Source: Patescibacteria group bacterium
Lineage (GTDB): Bacteria > Patescibacteriota > Patescibacteriia > UM-FILTER-42-10
Direction: 5' to 3'
Assembly (NCBI GenBank): GCA_041666485.1
Contig: JBAYGW010000003.1
Coordinates: 16,415 to 80,414, forward strand
DNA: 64,000 nucleotides
In this document: one piece after another, positions 3,329 to 62,356 of the stretch
Layout: every line of letters starts with the position of its first letter
How positions within the stretch are numbered: position 1 is the first letter of the stretch
Notes under the pieces: generated by a model
Seen by the model: only the letters and a program-made list of their open reading frames with translations
Told to the model about the DNA's origin: nothing
Databases searched by the model: none
Position numbers and translations under genes: made by a program

Positions 3329-4819
3329 CTATTTCCTAATTTTCTCCGTCACATTAAATCCCATGTATTTACCCAGCATCAGCCGGGTCTGAGCATCAAT
3401 CGCTGGAATTGATCCGAAAAAGATCATTGTTACCGGAAAGAGTACCCATTGTAACAGCATTTCAACAAATTTAATCTTATGTTTTTGCTCGGGCCTTTTA
3501 GGCAGCAATGTCGTACTGAAAACTGCCATCAAAATCAGGCCGATCATTGCCGCGCTCATCAGCCACTCCAATACATAAGGCGCGGTTTGTGCGGCGATTG
3601 ATGAAGACTCCTGGTATCTGGCAACCGCAAGCGGTAGTCTACCTAAGATAAATATCAAAATCGGAGCTGTGGCCCAGGAATAATGTCCCTCCGCCATGTT
3701 CCACACGTAGTGAAATTTTTGTCGCCATTTAATTTTCTTATTTTTTTTGAAAAACCAAAGCATATACGGAAAATGCTCAATACCGTATGCCCAGCGCCTT
3801 TGCTGTTTATATTGATTTTTTAAACTTTGCCACAGGGTGCTGCCCATAACCGTATCCATGGAAACCGGTATGTACATAGGCGTCACAGTATAATCTCCGT
3901 CATATTCCAGAAAACACTGCAGAAATATTCTGGAATCCTCAGTGACAATATCGTTCTGCCAGAAATCAATATCCACCAGTGCGCGGAAACTCATACTGTG
4001 TGATGAAAATGTAAATAATCTTTCCGGCCGTAACTGTTCGGTCATCAACCAGAATGTCGTGCCATTTGCCACCACCCGCATCAGTGCCGGCGAATCCCAG
4101 ATATTATTATTGAACAGAGGCACGGGCTGGAAACTGGTTTTGGTCGGATTCGGATGGTTAAGATACATGTTCGTCAAATACGCAAAATATTCGCTGTGCA
4201 CGCATGTATCAACATCAAACGAGGATACGATAACGTTTTCGTACGGAATATTTTGGCTGTCAATATATTCCTTTGTTTTTCTACCAGCCCAGGCGATATT
4301 TGAACCTTTCCCGGGCATTTCTCCCGGAATATTCGCCGGGTGTTCCACCACCAGCAGTTTATGAAACTTATCACCGAATTCTCTTTGCATAATTTCCGCA
4401 ATACCGCTCGCTCTTTCCCTATCCCGCTCCTCAATCGCAAACGTAACAATAAATTTGTCCTTCGGATAATTGGAATTTACTAAGCTCTGGAATGTTGATC
4501 TTATTACTTCAATCGGCTCTTTATATGTCGGCAACATAATAAAATGATACATGTCCTGCCAACGGGAATTTTTCCTGCATTCTTCCAACCAATTTACCTT
4601 GATCGCTCTTTTGAAACGGCGATACGAGATGATCATATACAACTGTAAATACAGTATGCGCATCAGCCACAGTAGATCAAAGACAATAATAAAATATATC
4701 ACCCAGATCGGCTGGAAAAATGACAGTGAAATTGCGGCAATAAAAGTAGTCCAGGTCAGCGCACCCGGGATTATTTCCAGAATTCTATATTTACGATAAT
4801 CAGACAGTTTATTAAACAT
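3329..4819 (-). CDS. membrane-bound family 2 glycosyltransferase (processive synthase-like)
   Basis: 496-aa ORF with N- and C-terminal TM helices, an FDVD (DxD) motif and a QQRRW (QxxRW) motif. Confidence 0.75.
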   Translation of the reverse strand: MFNKLSDYRKYRILEIIPGALTWTTFIAAISLSFFQPIWVIYFIIVFDLLWLMRILYLQLYMIISYRRFKRAIKVNWLEECRKNSRWQDMYHFIMLPTYKEPIEVIRSTFQSLVNSNYPKDKFIVTFAIEERDRERASGIAEIMQREFGDKFHKLLVVEHPANIPGEMPGKGSNIAWAGRKTKEYIDSQNIPYENVIVSSFDVDTCVHSEYFAYLTNMYLNHPNPTKTSFQPVPLFNNNIWDSPALMRVVANGTTFWLMTEQLRPERLFTFSSHSMSFRALVDIDFWQNDIVTEDSRIFLQCFLEYDGDYTVTPMYIPVSMDTVMGSTLWQSLKNQYKQQRRWAYGIEHFPYMLWFFKKNKKIKWRQKFHYVWNMAEGHYSWATAPILIFILGRLPLAVARYQESSSIAAQTAPYVLEWLMSAAMIGLILMAVFSTTLLPKRPEQKHKIKFVEMLLQWVLFPVTMIFFGSIPAIDAQTRLMLGKYMGFNVTEKIRK

Positions 4820-5678
4820 ATAGTTTTTGGCATTTAGGACAAAAGGTTGTACCGCGGTTACTCACTTTGGTCCTGGACAGTTTAGTGTCACAGCGGAAAC
4901 AATTTTGTCCGCTACGCTTATATACTTTTCTCACGTTCTGGTAATTACCTTTTCTACCGAGCGCATCACGGTAATCTGATATGGATGTACCACGATACTT
5001 TACCGCCTTTTTCAGTATTTTAACAATAGCTGAATGGATGGCTTTGCTTTGTCTTACATTCAGACTGTCCGTTTTCTGTTTAGGATTGATCTTCGCTTCC
5101 CATAAAATCTCATCTGCATATATATTCCCGATTCCTGATACAAAATGCTGATCCAGTAAAATAGATTTAATAAAACCTTTTTTATTTTGGAGCCTTGATT
5201 TAAATACACTGTATGTAAACTCACGACTCAGCGGTTCCGGACCGAGTTTTTTCAGCCGCGGCATATCATTCTCTTCACTTGTTTTAAAAAGCTTAATCTC
5301 GCCAAATCTCCTCACATCCGAAAAAGCCAGCTCTTTATTATCATCCAAATAAAAGCGGGTGCGTATAAACTGATTAAAGGAATCGTAAAATGGACTGTCT
5401 TTTCCCTCTTTATTCTTCCAGTCATGATCACGATAAAGCAAATGACCGGTCATTTTTAAATGAATAAGTAATGTTTGATTACCTGTCAGATCAATCAGAA
5501 TATTTTTTGCCCGCCTTCTAACACCGGTCACTTTCCTGCCGACAATACCTTTCCTGACTTTCAAAACAGAAGGATGAAAGCTCTTCGGCCAATCAGTCCA
5601 AATCTTTTGAACAGTATGTCCTTTCAATTTTACATTTAAATCAGAAACAATTGTTTGTACTTCGGGCAGCTCCGGCAT
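4812..5678 (-). CDS. mutM: formamidopyrimidine-DNA glycosylase
   Basis: Starts MPELPEV and has a C-terminal CxxC...CxxC zinc finger (CFRCDTKL...FCPKCQ). Confidence 0.9.
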   Translation of the reverse strand: MPELPEVQTIVSDLNVKLKGHTVQKIWTDWPKSFHPSVLKVRKGIVGRKVTGVRRRAKNILIDLTGNQTLLIHLKMTGHLLYRDHDWKNKEGKDSPFYDSFNQFIRTRFYLDDNKELAFSDVRRFGEIKLFKTSEENDMPRLKKLGPEPLSREFTYSVFKSRLQNKKGFIKSILLDQHFVSGIGNIYADEILWEAKINPKQKTDSLNVRQSKAIHSAIVKILKKAVKYRGTSISDYRDALGRKGNYQNVRKVYKRSGQNCFRCDTKLSRTKVSNRGTTFCPKCQKLYV

Positions 5679-59093: not shown

Positions 59094-59861
59094 TTACATC
59101 ACAGTCAAATCTACCCCTTTTGATTCATAATATTCTAAAACATAATCGGGTATCTGTATTTTATGATGCCTAAAGCATTGGACCATTTTTGTAATATATC
59201 CCTCTTTATCATCCTCCCATGTATCCCAATGCAACGATTCACGAGCGATCGCATTTAGTTCCTTATCCATAGCTCCGTACTTCAACTGTAAATCCGTTAG
59301 CTCCTTCCACAAAATAAGATGATACAAACGGATACCACTCTGATCAAACCATGATTGACTGTCAAAAACATCCTGATATTTTTCATGAAACCGGTCTATC
59401 TGATATTCCCCATATATAAACACAGCTACCCCGGTTACAATCGCTCCAACTTCTGCCAGTTTTTTTGTGCTTTCACGCTTGGATTTTGCAGCAGCCATTG
59501 AATCATCCACTAATAAAACGCGTGTTCCGGGTTTGATAAAATTCATGCCACCAACGATAACCGGTCGTCCTGCACGTTTTGATTCACCGCGCACAATAAC
59601 CATTGGTTTGCCAGTTGCCATTGAAATCGCCGTCGCAATGGTAACACCGGATAACTCAATACCGGCAATAATATCTACCTGACTAAAATCAATCAGTCGT
59701 TTGAACTCTTCCGCAAGCAATTTCAATATCGTCGGCTCACCAACTACGCCTCTGGTAAAATCCACAGGAATCAAGCCATAACTGGTCATTACTGGTACAA
59801 GTGTAAACAAATTCGGAAACGTTCCCAGTCGTTTGATTAATTCTTGGCTTTGTATGTTCAT
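59094..59861 (-). CDS. phosphoribosyltransferase-fold protein (OPRT-like, atypical PRPP loop) with a C-terminal extension
   Basis: RVLLVDDSMAAA in place of the canonical VLLVDDVxTTG, and an additional C-terminal domain of about 90 aa. Confidence 0.6.
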   Translation of the reverse strand: MNIQSQELIKRLGTFPNLFTLVPVMTSYGLIPVDFTRGVVGEPTILKLLAEEFKRLIDFSQVDIIAGIELSGVTIATAISMATGKPMVIVRGESKRAGRPVIVGGMNFIKPGTRVLLVDDSMAAAKSKRESTKKLAEVGAIVTGVAVFIYGEYQIDRFHEKYQDVFDSQSWFDQSGIRLYHLILWKELTDLQLKYGAMDKELNAIARESLHWDTWEDDKEGYITKMVQCFRHHKIQIPDYVLEYYESKGVDLTVM

Positions 59862-60138
59862 AAAGTAATTGTAACGCGCATATATTCTAGGTCAAGGTGC
59901 CTGTATAACTACTGCCCGTTCGAATCCCAATAATTACAAATGTCTTAATTCATTATTTATCCTGAGCACAACAGGAGCGCACAAGGCATAGATTTGACAA
60001 GTCTAGCTAGTCCTCGCCGAGACAGAAAAAAGTGGGGCCCCCGACCCGCTTTTGGCGGGTTGGGGAAAGGGGCACAGACCCGCAACCTAAAACAACCAAG
60101 CTTGCTTGGTTGTGACAGGTGAAGGGTCTGATGACCCG

Positions 60139-60212
60139 TGGCTGGGGAGGAGGGATTCGAACCCCCGGTGACGGGACCAGAACCCGTTGCCTTACCGCTT
60201 GGCTACTCCCCA
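60139..60212 (-). tRNA. tRNA-Gln (anticodon CUG), CCA encoded
   Basis: Manual cloverleaf: acceptor TGGGGAG/CTCCCCA, D arm GCC-AAGCGGTAA-GGC, anticodon arm ACGGG-TTCTGGT-CCCGT, variable loop CACC, T arm GGGGG-TTCGAAT-CCCTC, discriminator G and CCA. 74 nt. Confidence 0.9.
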
Positions 60213-60221
60213 ATGTTTAGA

Positions 60222-60488
60222 TTAATTTTTATTTTTGATTTCTTCTATGTCTTTCAGTTTTTCATCAAGTAATTTTCTACCTTGACCGGATTTTAAAAAC
60301 TTTTCTCTTTTCATTGCCTCAGATCTACTATTAAAATCTTCCTTATAAATCAATACCCACGGTGATCGTCCCTTAGTATATCTACACTTGCCGCTATTGT
60401 GTTCTTCTAATCTTTTCTCAACATTATCAGTGCTACCAACGTACCTATTCTGGTAATTTATACTTTTTATTACGTAAATTGAATACAT
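60222..60488 (-). CDS. GIY-YIG nuclease family protein (minimal, catalytic domain only)
   Basis: 88 aa; YSIYVIKS...YVGSTDNVEKRLEEHNSG and a later E in MKREKFLK. Start set at M68 of the 155-aa track ORF. Confidence 0.85.
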   Translation of the reverse strand: MYSIYVIKSINYQNRYVGSTDNVEKRLEEHNSGKCRYTKGRSPWVLIYKEDFNSRSEAMKREKFLKSGQGRKLLDEKLKDIEEIKNKN

Positions 60489-60499
60489 TGTATTTTTAT

Positions 60500-60650
60500 G
60501 ATTCCTCGCCGGAGGCGAGTGCGCTCGCCTCGCTTTCGCGAGAGCGAAGCGGGCCTCAGGCGCAGAACCCCCGGTGACGGGACCAGAACCCGTTGCCTTA
60601 TCCGCCTCGGCTCGACGCCTCGTCGAGACGGGCCGCTTGGCTACTCCCCA
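60500..60650 (-). pseudogene. truncated, insertion-bearing second copy of tRNA-Gln(CUG)
   Basis: Identical to nucleotides 1-59 of the intact tRNA (through GAATC of the T loop). A 32-nt G+C-rich insert (60601-60632) lies in the D loop and a 60-nt insert (60505-60564) in the T loop. The 3' T-stem and acceptor strand are missing. Confidence 0.75.
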
Positions 60651-60662
60651 ATGTTTTATTTC

Positions 60663-60694
60663 AAAAAAATAATTCGCCATATATCGCATGGCGA
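60663..60694 (-). terminator. intrinsic terminator after dnaX
   Basis: TCGCCAT-GCGATAT-ATGGCGA hairpin followed by ATTATTTTTTT on the minus strand. Confidence 0.7.
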
Positions 60695-60706
60695 TAACAT
60701 TCTTAT

Positions 60707-62356
60707 CTAACCTTCTACCACTTTCCCGCCGAAGGTGTCAAGTGCATCCTTCAGCGCACTACTGTCTTCCTCTTTTTTATTGTGTTCCGGTATCTTTTTA
60801 TCTCGCAACGCATTATCAATAATACAGGTGAAGGTCAGGGGCGTTTCATATACTTCATCCAGTACATTTTCAATTATCTGTTTGTTCTTTGCTTCCCAGA
60901 CCCGGTCCATATAAAATTTAAACCCGAAAGCAATTGTAATAACCTTGCCGTTAATCTCCAATACTTCCCCGACACTTAAGGTAAGTGATAAAGAATGATT
61001 ATGTGCTTTTAGCTTTTTTAAAAAAGTTTTCCATTTTTTTTCAATCTCTGACAGCTTAACAACCGGCGTCTCTTTTACCAATTCATCTGTTTCATCAACC
61101 GCCTTCTTTTCAGCTAGAACTGGCCTAATTACCTCTTTTACTATCTTATGTACTTGAGCAATTGGTCTTACTTCGGGAATATTTCTTCTGTTTGGTGGTT
61201 GAAATTTAGGAGTAAAAGACGGTTGATTCTTTGTAACCGGCTGTGTTATTTCATTCCCGCCCTCAATAATTTCCAAAATTGCAATTTCCAGCGGGAGTTG
61301 GATTATATCCTTTTGCGCTTTGATCATCGGTTCAATTTTAAGAAAAATATTGATCCACCGGATCAGTTCCTGTGAATTGAATTGATTTGAAATTTTAATC
61401 ATTTCTTTCTGCAGTTCATCATCCATTTCATACACAACAAACTTCTCCAATGAACTTGATATATTAAGCAGCATGATTCTTCTTAACACTTCAATCACAT
61501 TTTTAACAAAATTCCTGACATTTCCACCCTCTTCTACCAACCTGTTGACCAGCTCAATAGATGCGGCGGTATTTTCCATCGCAATCAGGCTCAAAAACTG
61601 AATCACTAGTGTATCATCAGAATGCGGAACGATCAGATCAATGTGATCCATTGTAACTTTTTTCTCTCCGAGTGAAAGCACCTGACCCAACATGCTCTCG
61701 GCGTCCCGTACACTACCGTCAGAAGCCATAGCAATTGCCTTCAAGACCGGCTCATCAACCTGCACTTTTTCCTGACTAATAATAGTGTTCAACCGGAGCA
61801 CCAGATCTTTTACTCCCACTTTCTGAAAATCAAAACGCTGACAGCGGGATATAATAGTCTGCGGCACCTTATGTACCTCGGTTGTCGCAAGGATAAACAC
61901 AACATTTTCCGGCGGTTCTTCCAGTGTTTTCAGCAAAGCATTGAACGCGGATATTGAAAGCATGTGGACTTCATCTATTATGAATACTTTGTAGGTGCTG
62001 GATACCGTTGCCACACGCGAATTGTCAATTATATTTTGTCTTACATTATCCACTCCCGTATGAGAAGCAGCATCAATCTCAACCAAATCCAATAATCTTC
62101 CCTTCATAATATCTTTGCAGGAGCTGCATTCATTACAGGGTTCTGCAGAATCTTTTTTTCTTTTCTTACAGTTAAGAGATTTTGCAAAAAGACGGGCAAT
62201 GGTTGTCTTGCCGACACCCCGCGGACCGGTAAACAAATATGCATGGGCGATTCTACCGCTTTCCAATTCATTTATCAGCGTAATTCTGATATGATTTTGA
62301 TCAACCAAATCCTTAAAAGACTGCGGCCGATATTTACGATATAGTGTCTGTGACAT
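60707..62356 (-). CDS. dnaX: DNA polymerase III subunit gamma/tau
   Basis: Walker A GPRGVGKTT, a zinc module CxxC...CxxC, the IIDEVHMLS box and an SRCQRF sensor motif. Confidence 0.93.
   Translation of the reverse strand: MSQTLYRKYRPQSFKDLVDQNHIRITLINELESGRIAHAYLFTGPRGVGKTTIARLFAKSLNCKKRKKDSAEPCNECSSCKDIMKGRLLDLVEIDAASHTGVDNVRQNIIDNSRVATVSSTYKVFIIDEVHMLSISAFNALLKTLEEPPENVVFILATTEVHKVPQTIISRCQRFDFQKVGVKDLVLRLNTIISQEKVQVDEPVLKAIAMASDGSVRDAESMLGQVLSLGEKKVTMDHIDLIVPHSDDTLVIQFLSLIAMENTAASIELVNRLVEEGGNVRNFVKNVIEVLRRIMLLNISSSLEKFVVYEMDDELQKEMIKISNQFNSQELIRWINIFLKIEPMIKAQKDIIQLPLEIAILEIIEGGNEITQPVTKNQPSFTPKFQPPNRRNIPEVRPIAQVHKIVKEVIRPVLAEKKAVDETDELVKETPVVKLSEIEKKWKTFLKKLKAHNHSLSLTLSVGEVLEINGKVITIAFGFKFYMDRVWEAKNKQIIENVLDEVYETPLTFTCIIDNALRDKKIPEHNKKEEDSSALKDALDTFGGKVVEG

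Follow-up and report, generated by a model that had tools for sequence, protein, structure and literature searches.

A GIY-YIG nuclease gene between two tRNA-Gln copies in Patescibacteria: a probable homing-type element that splits and restores its tRNA target

Nuclease-driven selfish DNA at tRNA genes is already known. The free-standing protein SegB of phages T4 and T6 is ~220 amino acids (aa) long, belongs to the I-TevI/UvrC-like branch of GIY-YIG nucleases and carries a DNA-binding part; we know of no split tRNA stubs or double-hairpin cassettes at SegB loci. SegB is a GIY-YIG homing endonuclease whose 27-bp site contains an 11-bp T-psi-C stem-loop motif of tRNA genes (PMC2330249), and through homologous recombination it amplifies tRNA+segB units in tandem (PMC13096335). 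Here we analyze a 64,000-nt stretch of a Patescibacteria genome (the window), in which an 88-aa GIY-YIG gene lies between a broken and an intact copy of tRNA-Gln(CUG) downstream of dnaX. We propose that this locus is probably a homing-type selfish element that splits tRNA-Gln at the T loop while restoring it, and that the window holds one copy of a tRNA-targeting selfish element that is widespread in Patescibacteria and apparently undescribed. As with SegB, a GIY-YIG gene stands among tRNA genes and is present in some relatives and absent from others; SegB drives co-inheritance of flanking tRNA DNA, and the module of the Candidate Phyla Radiation (CPR) has a T-loop break point, empty sites and arrays. 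Unlike phage-borne SegB, the Patescibacteria protein is chromosomal, 79-89 aa long, of the SLX1/UPF0213 branch and without an extra domain. A first-pass annotation of the window, made from its letters alone, had drawn the comparison with phage T4 seg genes, which is apt given that SegB recognizes the T-psi-C stem-loop motif (PMC2330249). It had also supposed that a GIY-YIG gene nested between tRNA copies was uncharacterized; the full-text literature gave no description of tRNA-linked GIY-YIG modules in CPR (subscription-only literature lay outside the search), and we did not find the Patescibacteria module itself described.

Other known systems share parts of this plan. Integrase-type islands in tRNA and tmRNA genes encode a tyrosine integrase, usually duplicate the 3' part of their target and are kilobases long. 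They too insert inside a tRNA gene, provide a restoring duplicate and leave a partial direct repeat, but the element described here is ~0.4 kb long and duplicates the 5' part or, in a second class of loci, the 3' part of the tRNA at the T loop. Between the window repeats we found no integrase, the GIY-YIG gene being the sole open reading frame (ORF), and the repeat is the tRNA 5' part. The UPF0213 or SLX1-like proteins, such as 1zg2 (BH0048) and 1ywl (EF2693), resemble the window protein in sequence and fold and, like it, consist of one minimal domain that lacks the C-terminal Asn. Branched DNA is the substrate on which SLX1 acts, together with SLX4. A bacterial SLX1-like group was defined by GIY-YIG phylogenomics (PMC1564403), but linkage to tRNA genes, stubs and a cassette did not turn up in the UPF0213/SLX1-like literature. 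Group I introns, which are enriched in Patescibacteria, invade the anticodon loops of tRNAs (PMC13011429) and the T loops of tmRNAs (PMC11915505), and GIY-YIG ORFs in CPR rRNA insertions likewise lie outside recognizable introns (PMC11270868). The locus resembles these introns and rRNA insertions in its invasion of a conserved loop of a stable-RNA gene, but it differs from group I introns in having no ribozyme core and in that a second gene copy, not splicing, rescues the host RNA.

The locus has the following layout, where coordinates are positions of the 64,000-nt stretch and all features are read along the minus strand:

60707, minus strand: stop codon of dnaX (549 aa; Pfam DNA_pol3_delta2/AAA)
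60694..60662, minus strand: dnaX terminator hairpin (60694..60674) and T run, from a terminator scan
60633..60650, minus strand: outer 5' stub, tRNA-Gln(CUG) nt 1-18 (acceptor 5' strand and D arm to GCGG), in repeat D3
60601..60632, minus strand: D-loop insert of the stub, 32 nt, G+C-rich, unique in the window
60565..60600, minus strand: outer 5' stub continued, tRNA nt 19-54, running from the 3' side of the D arm through the CTG anticodon arm and the variable region to the T-stem 5' strand and TTC, repeat D1
60505..60564, minus strand: T-loop cassette insert, 60 nt, two hairpins, from its sequence and comparison with the related locus L001
60500..60504, minus strand: GAATC, where the T loop resumes (tRNA nt 55-59) and tRNA homology then stops, from sequence and cross-locus comparison
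60222..60488, minus strand: 88-aa GIY-YIG gene (Pfam PF01541), starting 11 nt past GAATC
60139..60212, minus strand: intact tRNA-Gln(CUG), 74 nt (ARAGORN, CTG; Rfam tRNA, 60.8 bits)
60027..60138, minus strand: structured 3' trailer, G+C-rich, a long imperfect hairpin plus intrinsic terminator with T run (folding energy -57.8 kcal/mol, z = -6.5)
59912..59928, minus strand: GGGATTCGAACGGGCAG, remnant of the left end of an X-type T-loop insert, inverted repeat I4

These are the five items that the first-pass annotation had placed in order on the minus strand (dnaX terminator, broken tRNA copy, GIY-YIG frame, intact tRNA and trailer), except that the trailer measures ~112-119 nt and not the 130 nt given there. 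Its account of the broken copy, as tRNA nt 1-59 with inserts in the D and T loops and the 3' end gone, also agrees with our comparison. The stub starts ~12 nt beyond the dnaX terminator; its nt 1-18 with the AAACAT flank (D3, 60633-60656 versus 60195-60218 of the functional gene) and its following 36 nt (D1, 60565-60600 versus 60159-60194) are 100% identical to the intact copy. Exact repeats of 24 and 36 nt inside 1 kb far exceed what chance would give. The stub lacks the 3' T-stem and acceptor strand, and when both copies were submitted to ARAGORN, a check that had been suggested from the letters, only the intact one was called; Rfam did not call the stub as a tRNA either. The intact tRNA-Gln starts 9 nt past the nuclease stop and is the sole ARAGORN tRNA in the 64-kb window. 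A consensus scan between the dnaX terminator and the stub gave no promoter for the module.

Comparison with close relatives identifies an empty site. Divergence of DnaX groups the loci as ((window, L001), L169), (L171, L174). The module is present in L001, whose DnaX is 87% identical to that of the window. In L169 (DnaX 87% identical on realignment, 85% by BLASTP) the same dnaX terminator and the sequence 'gaaatatcgt' are followed by an intact tRNA-Gln identical to that of the window, with no stub, cassette or ORF; the tRNA of L001 is identical as well. As L169 holds a whole tRNA at the position of the stub, the window stub marks the native site of the resident tRNA. Similarly, because the same hairpin and 'gaaat' precede the intact tRNA-Gln of the empty site, the dnaX terminator is taken as the native upstream flank of the resident gene. 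The first-pass annotation had advised examining the orthologous locus in related genomes, holding that a lack of empty sites would count against its proposal, and L169 provides such a site.

The 3' side of the locus can be read in the same way. L174 has no ORF but shares the trailer with the window; it also has an intact tRNA, tRNA fragments, a 3' stub and an X-type insert. The presence of this trailer at a nuclease-free locus shows that it is the native 3' flank of the tRNA and not part of the element. The trailer is 97% identical in L001 (4528-4640), where it follows an outer 3' stub, and is recognizable in L174 (4529-4640). After the intact tRNA, L001 has a terminator, an X insert, a 3' stub and then the trailer, whereas the window trailer comes directly after the intact tRNA; this difference in order implies that the window has lost a 3'-stub segment, most simply via recombination between two copies of GAATCCCTCCTCCCCA. 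The window remnant GGGATTCGAACGGGCAG is the same as the start of X in L001 (4405-4421) and in L003. At L171, which also has no ORF, the dnaX-linked tRNA-Gln (4241-4370) belongs to another lineage (TCGGGGA...), and the 15 nt behind it, CCTCCTCCCCAGCCA, are left over from the resident type; these sequences suggest that one tRNA gene has replaced the other. In ~20 more distant Patescibacteria the site is empty too, with tRNA-Gln directly following dnaX. At one further dnaX/tRNA-Gln site, L088, a divergent GIY-YIG gene is present; its outer halves (TGGGAGA/TCTCCCA) pair with each other, unlike the inner tRNA (TCGGAGG/CCTCCGA), and L073 is similar.

The trailer and the X-type inserts have features of their own. 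The stems of the trailer are kept while its loop bases vary, despite saturated host synonymous sites, and the trailer, which has no Rfam match, may be a conserved structured RNA or a processing signal. X-type inserts are ORF-less T-loop inserts that stand before a 3' tRNA stub at L001 4405-4527, L003 2076-2195, L135 5333-5435, L169 4324-4440 and L174 4391-4528. Their first letters repeat the local T loop in inverted form (GGATTCGAAC, or GGATTTGAA for tRNAs with TTCAAA), and they end in ...GGAC..GAATCC, with a stem that covaries (CAAATGC/GCATTTG in L001 versus TGAATGC/GCATTCA in L003). A piece of the form 'GGATTCGAAC...GGAC..GAATCC..CCA' in L001 and L003 was considered as a tmRNA or permuted-tmRNA fragment, which neither ARAGORN nor Rfam supported; this piece downstream of tRNA-Gln is now read as an X-type structured T-loop insert before a 3' stub.

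The location of the inserts in tRNA loops, and the frequency of group I introns in Patescibacteria tRNAs and tmRNA T loops (PMC13011429, PMC11915505), would also fit an intron-like or split-tRNA arrangement in which stub, inserts and ORF are removed at the RNA level to yield a second functional tRNA-Gln. We regard this as scarcely credible. Rfam scans of the window region, L001 and L003 returned tRNA only and left the stub, cassette, trailer and X element unmatched, with no intron or other RNA family at E values up to 10 (59500-61200) or up to 1 (L001 and L003). Moreover, the stub has no 3' T-stem or acceptor strand to contribute, in-silico removal of the hairpins across all loci gives no complete tRNA, and an intact copy is always present.

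These comparisons suggest how the window locus could have arisen under the homing-type reading. The resident tRNA-Gln(CUG), ~12 nt after the dnaX terminator, would have been invaded between TTC and GAATCC by a net insertion of ~0.44 kb that comprised the cassette, GAATC, an 11-nt spacer, the 88-aa nuclease gene, a 9-nt spacer and a second copy of tRNA nt 1-54. Since the new 5' copy abuts the resident tRNA 3' end, an intact tRNA-Gln, made of the inserted 5' part and the resident 3' part with its downstream flank, would be regenerated at no loss to the host, and the resident 5' two-thirds would be left as a dead, cassette-capped stub. We infer that the nuclease cuts tRNA genes lacking the element, at the conserved T-loop coding sequence or close to it, in the manner of T4/T6 SegB, with the junction of TTC and GAATC as its presumed target, and that an occupied allele is copied to repair the break, the two halves of the tRNA providing the homology. 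Tandem and nested arrays would result from unequal recombination or from repeated rounds of cutting at the regenerated tRNA, and recombination between the repeated tRNA parts would trim or delete the element. The window copy would then be an older, trimmed one that has lost the right-hand 3' stub kept in L001 and gained secondary nested hairpins.

To place the locus in a wider context, we collected related loci: 80 genome loci, out of 290 found among GTDB species representatives, together with metagenome loci, made a set of ~90. They come from Patescibacteria, Omnitrophota, Margulisiibacteriota and Ignavibacteriales. At least 62 of the 93 full-length GIY-YIG ORFs have a same-strand tRNA no more than 60 nt away, and most of the others run into a tRNA, lie in the interior of an array or sit at contig ends. 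The tRNA species at the modules are Gln (CTG or TTG), Tyr, Lys, Trp, Phe, Ser and Asn, that is, seven amino-acid identities, so that the GIY-YIG/tRNA association whose survey had been proposed from the window alone recurs in dozens of unrelated contexts and tRNA species. A contig break lies near the module in about one-third of the loci.

The loci fall into two layouts. In class 1 (Gln-CTG, Gln-TTG, Tyr, Lys, Trp, Phe and some Ser), tRNA nt 1-54, with GGTTC at the end, come first, then a 30-nt cassette and GAATCC; the ORF starts 7-20 nt later, and 0-34 nt separate it from the intact tRNA. An upstream partial copy of the same tRNA is present in 53 of 57 class 1 loci, typically nt 1-54 ending in GGTTC, and GAATCC directly follows the cassette in nearly all of them; at many, a spacer, GGTTC, a cassette, GAATCC and a tRNA 3' part follow beyond the intact tRNA. 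Class 2 (Asn and some Ser) mirrors this layout, with a 5' stub, cassette, GAATCC, spacer, intact tRNA, 13-38 nt, the ORF, GGTTC, cassette, GAATCC and a 3' stub, the ORF stop codon overlapping GGTTC. In general, an outer tRNA is split in the T loop, and the DNA between its parts carries the nuclease gene together with a single intact tRNA of that kind. The break between TTC and GAATC in the T loop, which had been remarked in the window as the point where homology ends, is the rule across loci. This recurrence, together with the empty site, supports the earlier suggestion of a nuclease-associated element that duplicates the 5' two-thirds of its tRNA target.

Arrays, either tandem or nested, are present at L010, L035, L029, L022, L067 and L072. 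The array of L072 (1523-2767), from a metagenome-assembled genome (MAG) of Ignavibacteriales, has four head-to-tail GIY-YIG units of 326 nt each beside tRNA-Ser(GGA); it shows that the module is not confined to Patescibacteria.

The T-loop insert has a defined core. The cassette consists of two tandem 15-nt hairpins of the form NNNGCC-NNN-GGCNNN (30 nt in all), and this consensus recurs as 45 distinct versions in other loci. In the window, hairpin 1 (TGCGCC-TGA-GGC..GCA) is broken by a nested 30-nt hairpin at 60552..60523 and hairpin 2 (CTCGCC-TCC-GGCGAG) lies at 60519..60505; the cassette of L001 equals that of the window minus the nested hairpin. Across 40 distinct versions, 99.4% of cells are paired, in comparison to 30-40% in slid registers. 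Compensatory changes occur at all six variable pairs, with 52 double-change cells versus 12.2 in shuffles, and none of 500 shuffles reached 52. The pattern used to select cassettes fixed only the GCC/GGC-type core and the outermost bases and left the covarying positions free. The two hairpins of the cassette are thus under selection; candidate roles are to keep the split T-loop site uncleavable, to bind the nuclease or to stabilize an mRNA end. Single hairpins of the cassette type also occur in the D or anticodon loops of stubs or replace whole arms, never in the intact copy. The window D-loop insert, a CCGCC..GGCGG-type hairpin with a nested 7-bp hairpin (CTCGACG-AGG-CGTCGAG), is not found at the corresponding site in the ortholog L001, relative to which it is a different, independent insertion; comparable D-loop hairpins are present at L003, L067, L070 and L071.

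Cassette conservation bears on the possibility of incidental decay, in which a tandem tRNA-Gln duplication decayed and was colonized by unrelated G+C-rich hairpins, with the GIY-YIG gene as a passenger. The first-pass annotation had offered tandem duplication followed by hairpin invasion as its second explanation. Hairpin invasion does hold for the nested 30-nt hairpin and the D-loop insert, which are secondary and found only in the window copy, and several generations of tRNA fragments are seen at the locus in relatives. It does not hold for the T-loop core, which is conserved across loci and is an integral part of the module rather than a later arrival. Furthermore, the same break point, 30-nt cassette and gene order are found in more than 50 loci from several phyla and seven tRNA identities, the cassette covaries, and the loci are not one recently transferred segment because their flanks and tRNAs differ. 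Recurrence across loci already contradicts incidental decay, which we consider very unlikely.

We next consider the protein. The 88-aa product matches Pfam PF01541 over residues 1-68 (62.7 bits against a cut-off of 22.6; E = 4e-17), and its sequence matches in the Protein Data Bank are 1zg2 (BH0048; 3e-7), 1ywl (EF2693; 7e-7) and SLX1 (~1e-3). An AlphaFold (AF2) model with a predicted local distance difference test score of 93 was matched by Foldseek to 1zg2 and to the SLX1 nuclease domain 7cq3 (rmsd 1.5 Å over 72 columns, 38% identity). By both sequence and model, the protein is a member of the UPF0213 / bacterial SLX1-like family that is reduced to the GIY-YIG catalytic domain. Homologs are 79-89 aa long. 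Residues Y16, G18, R26, E29 and H30 are invariant in 33 homologs, Y5 and E62 are at least 90% conserved, and a C-terminal FLKSGQGRK motif is invariant in homologs; by analogy with I-TevI and SLX1, the conserved Y, R, E and H residues would have catalytic roles. The 88 aa comprise the catalytic domain and one C-terminal helix, with no separate NUMOD, helix-turn-helix or zinc finger domain. As there is no room for more, we do not file the protein in the I-TevI/Seg family but compare it only as working alike. Defense-system and NCBIfam libraries gave only marginal matches.

Several observations concern how this gene is called. A 155-aa ORF (60222-60689, minus strand) covers the nuclease gene and is a read-through of the G+C-rich stub, given the 79-89 aa of the homologs. 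Over-long 'GIY-YIG' calls of 98-129 aa (P0013, P0086 and others) likewise arise from reading through a G+C-rich tRNA stub, the N-terminus of P0086 being a translated T loop (..GSNPT..). At L024, L043, L052, L058, L066, L075 and L076 the nuclease frame enters or crosses the tRNA, with the stop codon inside tRNA sequence. A database look-up of the exact 88-aa protein gave no match, while an identical DnaX is on record (P0121); the nuclease gene is probably annotated with another start, which would keep the exact product off record.

The nuclease gene and its host genes differ in divergence. Between the window and L001, synonymous divergence (dS) is 0.33 for the nuclease gene but 1.77 for dnaX and 1.57 for the rubrerythrin gene, host genes that are saturated. 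The ratio of nonsynonymous to synonymous divergence (dN/dS) for the nuclease gene is 0.17, which, with the conserved catalytic residues and the matching fold, marks the gene as intact. Together, this ratio and the low dS indicate that the nuclease gene is selected and is either younger than the host split or has been exchanged since, and at the sequence level the low dS points to recent exchange. In 43 of 62 cases a nuclease and its nearest neighbor sit at tRNAs for the same amino acid (expected fraction 0.40), a partial clustering by tRNA type, and paralogous nucleases of one genome are found at different tRNAs, that is, switches have occurred within a genome. We count the low dS, the foreign or chimeric tRNAs of L088, L073 and L171, the arrays and these switches as signs of mobility. 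A search for a phage vector among 2.9 million viral contigs (IMG/VR) gave one relative only.

Several points weigh against a homing-type element. The protein is a bare 79-89 aa domain without the DNA-binding domains of homing enzymes, and no cleavage specificity is known for it. The SLX1 nucleases, its closest kin by structure, are specific for DNA structure rather than for sequence. The presumed target TTCGAA is present once more in the regenerated tRNA, so self-immunity is unexplained, and simple homing fails to explain why the 5' copy matches each new tRNA species. A co-conversion gradient beside the cassette gave a mixed result, in that L073 and L051 fit while L059, L028 and L053 do not. 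In the window and in L001 the stub has kept full or almost full identity to the live tRNA although the dS of host genes is saturated, so that either gene conversion or a stub function is needed. Finally, other bacteria have UPF0213 genes that are fused to, or linked with, genes for tRNA-modification methyltransferases (TrmH-like and COG4123), hinting at a host RNA function (PMC1564403).

The last two points would be accommodated if the GIY-YIG protein served the host as a tRNA-directed enzyme (an RNA nuclease, or a processing or repair factor) co-transcribed with the tRNA, the cassette-bearing stub being a tRNA-mimic leader or trailer that regulates, stabilizes or titrates it. With the ORF always placed between a tRNA and a cassette, cleavage by RNase P or RNase Z would release the mRNA at one end, and its opposite end would be capped by the hairpins. 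Hairpin inserts in the D, anticodon or T loops, or in place of whole arms, leave the cloverleaf topology of the stub intact, and purifying selection on the nuclease gene is strong. On the other hand, the distribution is patchy, with an empty site in a sister genome; many tRNA species are used, and genomes carry several paralogs; arrays and 3' stubs are found, as are outer tRNAs whose lineage is not that of the inner one; the dS of the nuclease gene is five times below that of host genes; and contigs often end at the module. As none of these five features is expected of a housekeeping operon, we consider a host function unlikely.

The SLX1-like fold and the position of all insertion points at cloverleaf loops raise a serious rival to the homing-type reading, namely that the cassette is the mobile unit and is moved by an SLX1-like nuclease that nicks extruded cloverleaf or cruciform tRNA-gene DNA. 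With staggered cuts, one in a loop and one at the edge of the tRNA, fill-in would leave any tRNA with its 5' or 3' part duplicated, making the system an analog of repetitive extragenic palindromic (REP) sequences and their transposases (RAYT) with a GIY-YIG enzyme. This would agree with the closest folds being SLX1 nucleases, cutters of branched DNA, and with insertion in D, anticodon (between TTT and GAA in Gln-UUG) and T loops (between TTC and GAA). Whichever tRNA species is involved, the duplicated part corresponds to the tRNA of that locus and begins near its nt +1. Stubs gather hairpins, both solo and nested, and some stubs have a cassette but no ORF. However, the cassettes are not dispersed. 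In the 64-kb window the cassette motif has 3 matches per strand versus 0.6 in shuffles, just one, that at the module, lies in a tRNA context, and we found no dispersed hairpin family like REP sequences or miniature inverted-repeat transposable elements, the insert sequences being unique there. Outer and inner tRNAs of different lineages imply that some events import a foreign tRNA and not a local duplicate, and no GIY-YIG transposase is known. On balance we think this structure-targeted route improbable, and we retain the homing-type element as the preferred reading.

We put forward a broader proposal only tentatively: that the bare SLX1-like GIY-YIG domain plus the 30-nt cassette form an unrecognized class of selfish DNA that targets the loops of tRNA genes, perhaps via cloverleaf or cruciform DNA and not via sequence, regenerates or imports an intact tRNA, and so drives turnover, replacement and horizontal exchange of tRNA genes across Patescibacteria and neighboring phyla. 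If the homing-type reading is true, the module is a cellular, chromosome-borne counterpart to phage SegB, and nuclease-driven selfish DNA has repeatedly settled at the conserved T loop of tRNA genes in the smallest bacterial genomes known. The module would offer a testable function for the large, uncharacterized UPF0213 / bacterial SLX1-like family, explain stray tRNA fragments, over-long 'GIY-YIG' calls and contig breaks beside tRNA genes in CPR assemblies, and suggest a route for tRNA gene replacement and exchange between lineages. The module is widespread, compact and directly testable, and a nuclease of ~80 aa with a defined target would be of interest as a tool.

Some further observations were made at individual loci. 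In a Kerfeldbacteria MAG (L009, 2166-2320 and 3037-3150), a Thr-Tyr-Thr-(rpmG)-Trp tRNA cluster has, after each tRNA-Thr, a tRNA-like remnant with a cassette-type T-loop insert and a matching 3' acceptor strand plus CCA, and a 5' stub precedes tRNA-Trp; these remnants and the stub indicate that several tRNAs of one cluster were hit. The intact tRNA-Asn genes of L012, L015, L019, L021, L037, L039 and L040 (at ~2390-2500) have perfectly complementary leader and trailer sequences of 10-13 nt (in L012, aataaatttttat and ataaaaatttatt) that would lengthen the acceptor stem and may form a processing helix. Between the trailer and the rubrerythrin gene, the window encodes a 255-aa phosphoribosyltransferase-like protein (59094-59861, minus strand), L001 has two small ORFs (4640-5590) and L169 has a 226-aa ORF (4440-5370); from this differing content, the tRNA site borders a variable region. 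Upstream of the rubrerythrin gene of L001 (5548-5668) there is a weak, sub-threshold match to the Rfam lysM-TM7 motif (27 bits, E = 0.19).

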